A stretch of DNA of 64,000 nt from an uncultured Acidobacteriota bacterium (GTDB lineage: Bacteria; Acidobacteriota; Terriglobia; UBA7540): contig CAWDSK010000005.1 of the NCBI GenBank assembly GCA_963804995.1, positions 1,088,001 through 1,152,000 of the forward strand, read 5' to 3'. The position numbers and the translations under genes are program-made. The notes under the pieces were generated by a model, which was not told where the DNA came from, made no database searches, and was given only the letters and a program-made list of their open reading frames with translations. This document shows positions 36,710 through 39,491 of the stretch, piece by piece (the first letter of the stretch is position 1; each line of letters opens with the position of its first letter).

Positions 36710-37079
36710 AGCAGTTCTCCTATTCAGACTGGCCCGTTGGACGGAACTCCCATGCAGGTCCATTTAGGTTGAGTTCCCCGATGCCGGGGGTCGCTTTTAA
36801 GGATGCCGTGAGGGTGCTGTGATACCCGGAGATTGGTTAGAAATTGAAAGCGCCAGGGTGTCATTGATGAGGACAGCCGCGCCCTTGTACGCCGAGCGCG
36901 CCAAGATTGACAGAGAAGTGTAGTTATCAAGGATCACAAAATCAACTGGAATCTCGCCCGCTTGTGGTATATTCCGGCCGGCTCAAGGACCTGTCGCCGC
37001 GAGGCATTCCTGTAAGTCGGGTGTCTCAGTTTCCGCCATCGCCTAAGAAACAGGCTTCAATATCAATTCGCCAGCGACA

Positions 37080-37511
37080 GGCGCCCCAATACGGGTTCGC
37101 CGTCGCCATCCGCTGGACTAAAGCTCTGACCTCCGAATTCGCTGGCGGCCGACCCCCACTTTTCCGCTGTGAAATCTTGGCCCAATAGACTCGGAAACCC
37201 ATTCGCTGCCAACCGACAACCGTGTCACCGTTCACCAAGTGCAAGGCCTGTCGCCAAGGGGCCCAGATTCGGGAAAGCACGACCCAAAACAATCGGTCCT
37301 TCCTCTGCAGTCTCGGCACTCCCTTCCTTCTCTTGAGTACTCCCAGCCGTTGTCGCAAAGCCAGATTCTCCAGAGCCAAGTCACGGCGCTCTCTAAGAGC
37401 GGCAATTATGAAAATGGCCAGCCATCGCAGTGTCACGATCATGGGATGGAGTGTGGAGGTAACGACCTGAAGAAGCAACAGATTTCGAGCTGACGGAGTT
37501 TTGGCGATGGA
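37080..37511 (-). mobile_element. Truncated IS3/IS481-like (integrase-core type) element: left end and transposase N-terminus (ATG 37442)
   Basis: LALENLALRQRL..DRLFWVVLSR..DTVVGW..GFRVYW..GGRP..RMATANPYWGA. With the intron removed, the end reads TGTCCATCGCCAAAACTCC on the minus strand. Confidence 0.75.
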
Positions 37512-39467
37512 GTGTGTCCAGCAAAGGCTGGTATGTTCAGTGGGAGTTAGTCCCACCAAGGCAAGAGTCAGGAGCCTTGTAGCTTGGGTCGCATCCGTGG
37601 AGGAAACGAAGCGGATGAAGCTGACCGACAAAGCCATCCAAGGGATGGTGAGCGAGTCACCGGGCCGTAACGCAAGTGAACCCATAGGTGGCCTCGACAA
37701 AAAAATAGATCCGGAGGCCGAGCCCTCTCCTTCGGGGCGAAGGCAGCATGGCATGACGTGGGCTGACCGAGACGACATGTCACTCCGGCGGGGTGGTAGG
37801 GGCAGCACGGTGGCAAGGGCATGTCAAGCAACTGGAGAAACCGTCCTCGTCCCATCGAGAGATCGGTGGAGCAGGGTAGGCCGTATAACCGGAGACAACG
37901 GGAAATCGGCTGACGGCGAGACGGTGGCGGTTAGGCTCGAAGTAGCGACGAAGTGGGGTAACGCCCATGGAGCGAAGGGGCCTTGCTGCACAGCAAGTCT
38001 TGGCCAACATGGGAGGCAGGGGTGAAATGATAAAAGCGCCCTTTAAGCTGCAAGACCTGCGGCGAAGACTTTACGTCAAGGCGAAGGCTGAACCGACTTG
38101 GCGATTCTGGGGGTTGTATGTCCACGTCTGCAAACGAGAAACTCTCTGGGAAGCGTATCAGCTAGCTAAGGAGAACAAGGGAGCCCCAGGAGTAGATGGG
38201 GTCACGTTCCAGGCAATCGAGGCTGAAGGCTTGCAGGGATTTCTCGAACAGCTTCGCGAGGAGCTGGTGCAGCGGAGATATCGACCTCGACGGCTGCGGA
38301 AGGTAGGGATTCCGAAGGAGGGCGGAAAGGTTCGCCAACTTTCGATTCCTTGCATTCGCGACCGAGTGGTCCAGGGAGCGTTGAAGCTGATCCTGGAACC
38401 GATCTTTGAGGCCGATTTCCAACCGGGATCGTTTGGCTACCGGCCGAAGAAGTCAGCCCACGCTGCGATTCAACGCGTCTCGGAGGCAATCGTGCGGCAC
38501 ATGACCTTTGTCGTTGATCTCAACTTGCGTTCCTACTTCGATACGGTTCGACATTCCCTCGTACTGGAGAAGGTGGCACGGCGAGTGAACGACACCGAGG
38601 TCCTAGGGCTGCTCAAACTGCTGCTGAAGGCGTCGGGGAAGCAGGGTGTTCCGCAAGGCGGGGTGATTTCGCCCTTGCTCAGTAACGTGTACCTCAATGA
38701 GGTGGACAAGATGCTGGAAAAGGCGAAGGAAGTCACCCGCGAGGGGCGGTGGATGAACGTCGAATATGCCAGATTCGCCGATGATCTGGTGGTTCTGGTG
38801 AACGCTCATCCCCGGCAGGCCTGGCTTCGCAAGGCAGTGGAAAAGCGGCTACGGGAGGAGTTGGCCAAGCTGCAGGTTGAGGTGAACGAGGAGAAAAGCC
38901 GGAGGGTGGATCTTCAGCAAGGAGAGAGTTTCGGATTTCTGGGGTTTGAGTTCCGTCGCATCCGCAGTCGGCGGGGCCGATGGATGCCGCTGCGTACGCC
39001 GCGGGGCAAGAAGCGGACGGCATTGCTACGCAAGCTCAAGCTAGTTTTCCGGAGCTATCGCTCTCAGCCTGTGAGGGGGTTGATCGAGCAGATCAATCCC
39101 ATTCTGCGCGGCTGGGTGAACTACTTTGCGGTCGGGCACTCCAGCCGGTGCTTCTCGTATATCCGCGACTGGGTAGAGAAGAAGATTCGGTGCCACTTGG
39201 CGAGGGCCAGACAACGCCCAGGCTTCGGATGGAAGCGGTGGCGTAAGGAGTGGCTGTATGGCACGCTCGGGCTCTTCCACGAGTACCGCGTGGTCCATCA
39301 GTCATCCTCCTGGGCAGCCGCCCCGACCCGATAGGCCCCATAACCCTTGCCGTGAAGTGTGCAGGAACGCGTAGTGCGGGAAATCCGCACGCTACGTGTG
39401 ATGTGGCGGGAGCTGGAAACGGGGCTCGGAGCTTTCTCGGAGCCGCCGCGCCAGTTCCCGACCCTAC
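37512..39467 (+). mobile_element. Full-length group II intron (copy 2), 1956 nt
   Basis: Starts GTGTG, ends CCCTAC; RT ORF in domain IV; domain V at about 39367-39399; 3' boundary supported by divergence from copy 1. Confidence 0.92.
38027..39334 (+). CDS. ltrA: Group II intron reverse transcriptase/maturase, no endonuclease domain
   Basis: GAPGVDG, IPKEGG..RQLSIP..DRVVQ, SFGYRP, PQGGVISPLLSN, RFADD, FLGF, domain X GWVNYF. Confidence 0.95.
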   Translation: MIKAPFKLQDLRRRLYVKAKAEPTWRFWGLYVHVCKRETLWEAYQLAKENKGAPGVDGVTFQAIEAEGLQGFLEQLREELVQRRYRPRRLRKVGIPKEGGKVRQLSIPCIRDRVVQGALKLILEPIFEADFQPGSFGYRPKKSAHAAIQRVSEAIVRHMTFVVDLNLRSYFDTVRHSLVLEKVARRVNDTEVLGLLKLLLKASGKQGVPQGGVISPLLSNVYLNEVDKMLEKAKEVTREGRWMNVEYARFADDLVVLVNAHPRQAWLRKAVEKRLREELAKLQVEVNEEKSRRVDLQQGESFGFLGFEFRRIRSRRGRWMPLRTPRGKKRTALLRKLKLVFRSYRSQPVRGLIEQINPILRGWVNYFAVGHSSRCFSYIRDWVEKKIRCHLARARQRPGFGWKRWRKEWLYGTLGLFHEYRVVHQSSSWAAAPTR

Positions 39468-39491
39468 CACCGCACTCCAATGTTGCTGATT

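Follow-up and report, generated by a model that had tools for sequence, protein, structure and literature searches.

Why should a complete group II intron be found two bases inside the tip of an insertion sequence (IS), and does its presence there reflect an accident or a habit of the intron? The question is raised by a 64,000-nucleotide stretch of DNA (the window), in which the sequences flanking such an intron, once joined, read TTTTGGCGATGGA followed, across the insertion point, by CA. A preliminary description of this DNA had placed the intron 2 nt inside the terminal repeat of an IS, separating the terminal CA from the remainder of the repeat, and had supposed that multicopy IS ends might serve as its target in a parasite-on-parasite strategy. 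The analysis reported here indicates that the intron, which is of the endonuclease-less type, shares its position two bases inside the IS tip with a whole clade of relatives, and that this position was very probably reached by ordinary RNA-guided retrohoming.

The intron (Table 1) is 1,956 nt long and displays the features of a group II intron, namely a GUGYG start (GTGTG), an AY end (CCCTAC), a domain I core recognized by the Rfam model group-II-D1D4-4 (37538–37675, 125.9 bits), domains V and VI that fold at the 3′ end in the computed structure, and an ORF located in domain IV. Its borders are fixed independently by the comparison of six copies having differing flanks in the same genome. The ORF encodes a reverse transcriptase (RT)/maturase (TIGR04416, 363.9 bits with a cutoff of 300) whose active-site motif reads RFADD and in which a domain search matched RVT_1 and GIIM only, no endonuclease domain being found. 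The domain V triad (39368–39370) is CGC, as in 11 of the 12 members scored within the clade defined below, while AGC is found in 36 of the 44 relatives scored outside it. As to splicing, none of the 15 joints considered among the 28 listed from four contig sets of reads is a flank-to-flank (spliced) joint, and no piece crosses the locus.

Table 1. Coordinates (window numbering) of the intron, its guides and the surrounding IS remnants.
Feature	Position	Strand	Remarks
Complete group II intron without endonuclease domain	37512..39467	+	The genome has six near-identical copies, this one included
RT/maturase, 435 aa	38027..39334	+	Intact, FADD
Domain V hairpin, catalytic triad CGC	39367..39400	+	From the computed fold
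Domain VI and 3′ end	39405..39467	+	Likely branch point A39461; in the computed fold the bulged base is the adjacent G
EBS1 (TCCTTC)	37728..37733	+	5/6 pairs with IBS1 here, 6/6 at GAAGGA sites; covariation over 126 distinct intron/flank pairs
Likely EBS2 (A run)	37700..37704	+	Faces the T tract of the TIR; position picked by inspection, then scored
IBS1, TIR positions 3–8 from the tip	37506..37511	+	
IBS2, T tract of the TIR	37499..37503	+	
Inner 18 nt of the IS left TIR	37494..37511	-	Intact homolog at C1:140391
Last two bases of the IS (+ strand CA, - strand TG), pushed away by the intron	39468..39469	-	IBS3 is predicted to be the C
Truncated integrase-core transposase, first 121 codons	37080..37442	-	Intact relatives in the genome ~345 aa, HTH + rve_3
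Stub from the right end of another IS of this family	36987..37079	+	Ends in CA, abuts the truncated transposase; 92% identical to the element end at C3:1292831-1292921

The nature of the interrupted sequence is revealed by an intron-free homolog in the same genome (C1:139952–140391) that is 86% identical to the 5′ exon over 438 nt; its end is uninterrupted (C1:140370–140391) and the likeness breaks off right past the CA, so that the tip of the IS is located 2 nt beyond the insertion point. The intron divides the left terminal inverted repeat (TIR) of the IS and displaces its terminal CA by 1,956 bp. A distance of 71 nt separates the reconstituted tip from the ATG of the transposase (37442, minus strand), in keeping with the preliminary description, which had put a TGT-starting end about 70 nt upstream of the transposase N-terminus and whose account of the split repeat and of the separated CA proved correct. 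When scored with a TIR profile of 20 columns built from 63 ends that are free of introns and anchored by a transposase (drawn from 168 sequence windows, with anchoring on TG[T/C]) of a single bacterial class, the homolog of the window IS being included, the reconstituted site yields 25.4 bits; deprived of its two terminal bases it yields 21.4 bits, to be compared with the 6.3 bits corresponding to the 99.9th percentile of random genome positions. Complete members of the family have matching TGT...ACA repeats at both ends and unrelated outside flanks, and the genome contains 33 traces of the transposase and 48 free TIR-like ends. The window IS itself is a remnant, its transposase being cut by the end of a second family member and no right end being kept.

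The designation “IS3/IS481-type”, used in the preliminary description, can be retained only in part. TGT ends and a single ORF with an HTH and a DDE integrase core are IS481-type features that are present in the host IS (the intact relatives in this genome are single ORFs as well), and the transposase is matched by rve_3 above cutoff (38.1 bits) and, weakly, by HTH_32. Nevertheless, it falls below the NCBIfam cutoffs of both the IS481 model NF033577 (70.9 bits, cutoff 224) and the IS3 model NF033516 (72.8 bits, cutoff 160) and, being so far under both, the element is labelled here as belonging to an unclassified integrase-core IS family. The layout of the IS3 family is orfA/orfB, unlike the single ORF of the host IS, and a target-site duplication is typical of both the IS481 and IS3 families; a direct repeat of at least 3 bases was not seen by eye around complete IS copies, whose flanks are C/G-rich and may be rearranged. 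An attC site and a terminator, considered as possible targets of the intron, were dropped since the flank proves to be the terminus of an element carrying a transposase. It may be added that four copies of the transposase (C1:139478, C6:307696, C6:764686 and C6:882604) are broken at one motif, beyond which an identical foreign sequence follows in each of them; apparently, this gene is a site-specific target of another element.

Within the genome, the six near-identical intron copies (0–3 nt apart, which implies recent movement) are distributed over five sites, one of which (L265, C6:293628–297539) holds a head-to-tail double in a single TIR, the two copies being one base apart; another head-to-tail double is seen at L118. 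Three of the five independent sites (in the window, on C1 and on C6) are TIRs entered at the same base, with profile scores of 24.4–27.0 bits. The two remaining sites are not IS ends (5.5 and −4.3 bits) and both are interrupted in sense: a copy identical to that of the window (L262, C5:1086362–1088317, whose last 317 nt constitute positions 1–317 of the window) lies in frame in a DUF4118/PAS/GAF sensor gene, and a further copy (L261, C4:160357–162312) interrupts after 17 codons the higB-like gene of a type II toxin-antitoxin pair, the HTH antitoxin gene being located downstream. At both of these sites the last six flank bases still pair with EBS1. Occupancy is low, only 3 of the ~51 TIR-like sites of the genome holding the intron and 48 being free; the occupied ends are remnants or solo ends, two of them solo ends without transposase within ~1 kb, and the complete IS copies are intron-free. 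The G-rich strand carries four of the five sites, the other being ambiguous; this strand bias, drawn from five sites at which the skew is weak, is as expected from insertion into the lagging-strand template. At a separate locus (L264, C5:1233825–1234321), a 92% identical 3′ intron fragment is followed by CA and abuts the left-end region of a family transposase; here the relation seems to be reversed, the IS having apparently cut into the intron.

The flanks of relatives were collected from the best 80 of 592 genome loci ranked by RT, from 120 of ~400 metagenome loci found by an intron-internal pattern and from 30 loci of 133 family genomes, none being chosen by flank. Relatives were considered close if their first 300 nt (5′ RNA) showed an identity of 80% or more, a cut which admits some introns from outside the clade, and identical flanks were collapsed. 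With this definition, 34 of 48 close flanks, as opposed to 3 of 108 more distant ones, exceed the 99th background percentile of the TIR profile, which the other 14 close flanks fail; the best register is 2 nt inside the tip in 28 of the 34 TIR-like flanks and a different one in 6. A family transposase is found within 400 nt in 15/48 close but only 2/112 distant flanks, and the transposase-adjacent cases include 11 at left ends and 5 on the same strand, two of the latter at the usual right-end distance of ~200 nt. It follows that, at either end, the intron is directed away from the IS and that the antisense orientation to the transposase, put forward in the preliminary description, holds for left ends, insertions at right ends lying in sense. 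Of the 18 close cases whose 3′ junction is known, 11 have CA and 5 have CG immediately after the intron; among 46 distant ones, CA occurs in 2. A protein search with the window RT returned at least 120 clusters at 78–91% identity, and joint movement of IS and intron, looked for by eye among the loci of the relatives, was not found. In three loci (L206, L210 and L252) most of the RT gene is deleted and the 5′ 575–589 nt are joined to the last 130–145 nt, possible non-autonomous derivatives of the intron; L206 lies in the left TIR of an IS that is nearly complete.

The distribution of this habit was examined on an unrooted RT tree (86 RTs with at least 280 aligned residues; quick search, SH-aLRT support). 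A single clade of 16 RTs (SH-aLRT 98), whose named hosts are Acidobacteriota, Gemmatimonadota and Pseudomonadota, is TIR-positive in its entirety (15 members by profile, 8 by an adjacent transposase), as opposed to 1 of the 70 RTs outside it. This exception (L047, 1984–4010), inserted in a TIR before the CA, is a natural chimera: its first ~300 nt are 79–93% identical to the window intron and 65–81% to L030/L038, whereas the remainder is closer to L030/L038, a single case which suggests that the choice of the target travels with RNA domain I. Many distant relatives (L004–L080, L081–L200), on the other hand, occupy further group II introns, in which they are inserted on the 3′ side of domain V (a triad-plus-hairpin test is passed by 41 of 108 distant and by 1 of 48 close flanks), and the EBS1 of these domain-V-inserted introns matches the domain V site; the tree being unrooted, the domain V and TIR habits are left unordered. 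Other targets recur in the sub-clades L016, L069, L105/L148/L153, L030/L038 and L041/L043/L044, some of them resembling coding motifs of transposases that we take to be IS110-like and IS630-like.

The correspondence between guides and targets supports the same conclusion. Over 126 distinct intron/flank pairs, EBS1 forms on average 5.21 of 6 possible Watson-Crick pairs with its flank, compared with 2.41 after shuffling; in 34 close introns, which display 27 different EBS1s, the values are 5.06/6 for EBS1 (shuffled mean 2.47, maximum 3.38 in 2000) and, for EBS2, 4.09/5 (shuffled mean 2.46, maximum 3.06), the significance of these shuffles being overstated because related sequences are not independent. 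As judged from these pairings, the complementarity of EBS1 and EBS2 changes along with the target. No column covaries as expected of EBS3 among the close and distant introns whose 3′ junction is known, since C or T follows the site in 61 of 64 cases.

It could still be argued that the window intron is a one-off ectopic insertion, matching a TIR by chance among mobile debris. Two IS remnants are indeed piled up at the locus and, as described in PMC7306698, introns generally have other mobile elements in their neighbourhood, but the entry of three independent TIRs at the same base in one genome, the presence of all 16 members of the clade in TIRs and the complementarity of EBS1 and EBS2 to the TIR itself render such an accident barely conceivable; chance insertion is in fact refuted by the flanks of the relatives, by the sites in the genome and by the clade tree. 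The use of multicopy IS ends, supposed at the outset, is normal for both the intron and its clade, with the qualification that two of the five genome sites are not IS ends.

How would an intron devoid of endonuclease reach these ends? By analogy with work on class D introns (PMC4615759), the spliced lariat together with the RT would reverse-splice into the single-stranded lagging-strand template. TIR positions 3–8 would be read by EBS1 and the T tract by EBS2, with a G serving as EBS3 for the C of the terminal CA, whereupon the nascent lagging strand would prime cDNA synthesis. Such targets should be plentiful and nearly neutral to the host, each IS having two ends on opposite strands and dead copies leaving solo ends. 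A relaxed pairing would allow spill-over to look-alike sites in genes and the formation of head-to-tail doubles. The fixed register would most simply have been inherited from one ancestral retargeting, its constancy relying on elements that are constant throughout the TIR family, that is, the T tract and the two bases bordering the site (A preceding, C following).

Alternatively, the register could have a mechanistic origin, the intron particle using a transposition intermediate (either a tip that bound transposase has opened or the junction of an IS circle, where the two ends abut), in which case insertion would depend on the IS machinery beyond base pairing at the fork. The persistence of one register across TIR subfamilies with 27 different EBS1s and the proximity of the site to the bases generally known to be cleaved by DDE enzymes would fit such a dependence; common descent, however, accounts for the shared register, two of the five genome copies reside in ordinary genes which resemble the target by sequence only, two others occupy solo ends lacking a transposase within ~1 kb, and the chimera L047 suggests that the target is set by RNA domain I. 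A requirement for the transposition intermediate must be regarded as decidedly unlikely. Simply unlikely is a more inclusive scenario, in which the clade would have become a specialist of the reactive tips in a single, undescribed IS family, would track its subfamilies across phyla by rewriting its guides, would enter a tip opened by the transposase or an IS circle junction and would disable the end.

In the case of RNA-guided retrohoming, the death for transposition of an intron-occupied end is predicted as a by-product, since a split end should not be cut in DDE chemistry. The immobilisation of the IS put forward in the preliminary description would be a consequence of this kind, the window IS being already truncated, with 121 codons and no right end. 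This effect might instead be what is selected, the intron acting as a host-beneficial brake that disables the ends of the IS family. An end whose CA has been parted from the inner TIR should be blocked, and the same idea has been argued for RmInt1/RmInt2 (PMC5894124), but with 3 of ~51 TIR-like sites occupied, all of them remnants or solo ends, with the complete IS copies unoccupied and with two host genes interrupted by the intron itself, selection as a brake is very improbable.

Judging from its RT, the window intron fits class F in a wide sense (g2–g4 plus basal F), being without an En domain and having an RT-X within the ~430–445 aa of this class. FADD instead of YADD, a g2 feature, is present in the window RT and in 75 of 86 relatives; the identity of the RT is 65–71% with Bradyrhizobium/Burkholderiaceae, listed under g3, and 50–61% with Wolbachia/Bacillus, listed under g2, the match being by genus. 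Class D was rejected, the motif LX3AX3PXLF[V/A]HW given for it in PMC4615759 being absent from an RT whose C terminus contains WLYGTLGLFHEYRV, and so was class C (IIC), since EBS2 covaries with the flank and the flanks are TIRs rather than hairpins, the CGC triad being the only feature in common. The class F/g2–g4 introns Mx.xa.I1, So.us.I2 and W.e.I5 resemble that of the window in their RT-X (~435 aa), length (~1.95–2.0 kb) and FADD (Toro and Martinez-Abarca 2013, PMC3552965); Table S2 of that paper gives as their loci “putative non-coding sequence”, transposases and hypothetical genes and does not name TIR targeting.

Three types of target, namely homing sites, terminators and attC, are described for bacterial introns in PMC4424553, and the window case is one of homing. 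The closest precedent is RmInt2 of Sinorhizobium meliloti GR4, which occupies both inverted repeats of ISRm17 with a lagging-strand bias and head-to-tail doubles (Martinez-Rodriguez et al. 2014, PMC4615759; repeated in PMC5894124) and provides experimental support for the same homing logic (PMC4615759). According to this source, RmInt2 shares with the window intron the lack of an endonuclease, several near-identical copies, the use of both inverted repeats of one IS, a relaxed EBS2 pairing, a two-base IBS1-IBS2 linker, the head-to-tail doubles and the lagging-template bias. It differs in that it belongs to class D, is described from one strain and has a U-A EBS3-IBS3 pair, whereas the window intron has a FADD/class-F-like RT and a C after its site, and its clade, with many versions of EBS1, targets an integrase-core IS at 2 nt from the tip in the three phyla named above. 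As regards the target, the likeness to the case in PMC4615759 concerns the use of inverted repeats rather than the register within them. RmInt1 in ISRm2011-2 likewise has a multicopy IS as homing site and occasional ectopic hits in genes but, unlike the window intron, it occupies the IS body, with one site per IS, and is reported to block IS spread through poor splicing instead of splitting an end (PMC5894124). Finally, the nested introns of Methanosarcina acetivorans resemble the wider lineage of the window intron in homing into group II introns, a perpetual target (PMC4424553); relatives of the window intron insert on the 3′ side of domain V, a target that the window clade has left or, the tree being unrooted, has never used.

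The parasite-on-parasite strategy postulated in the preliminary description is borne out by the flanks of the clade and is itself already known, having been published for RmInt2 in the ISRm17 repeats (PMC4615759); what is new is another intron lineage, an unclassified IS family and a fixed register at the tip. In the literature covered, with subscription journals, ISfinder and the intron database outside its scope, only RmInt2 is described in IS inverted repeats and neither the target of this clade nor its IS family is treated. Insofar as the chemistry is most likely standard, the finding extends known biology: a strategy known from one rhizobial intron becomes a stable, clade-level trait having a measurable rule, by which both IS ends are used, the intron points outward, the site is two bases from the tip and the guides covary with the target. 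The 27 natural versions of EBS1 and the single domain I swap constitute a data set on intron retargeting, to which the domain-V-homing clades offer a contrast. The idea that introns restrain the IS they occupy is also made testable, the predicted effect being on the DNA end and not on the expression of the transposase, and attention is drawn to an abundant IS family lying below the IS3 and IS481 models.
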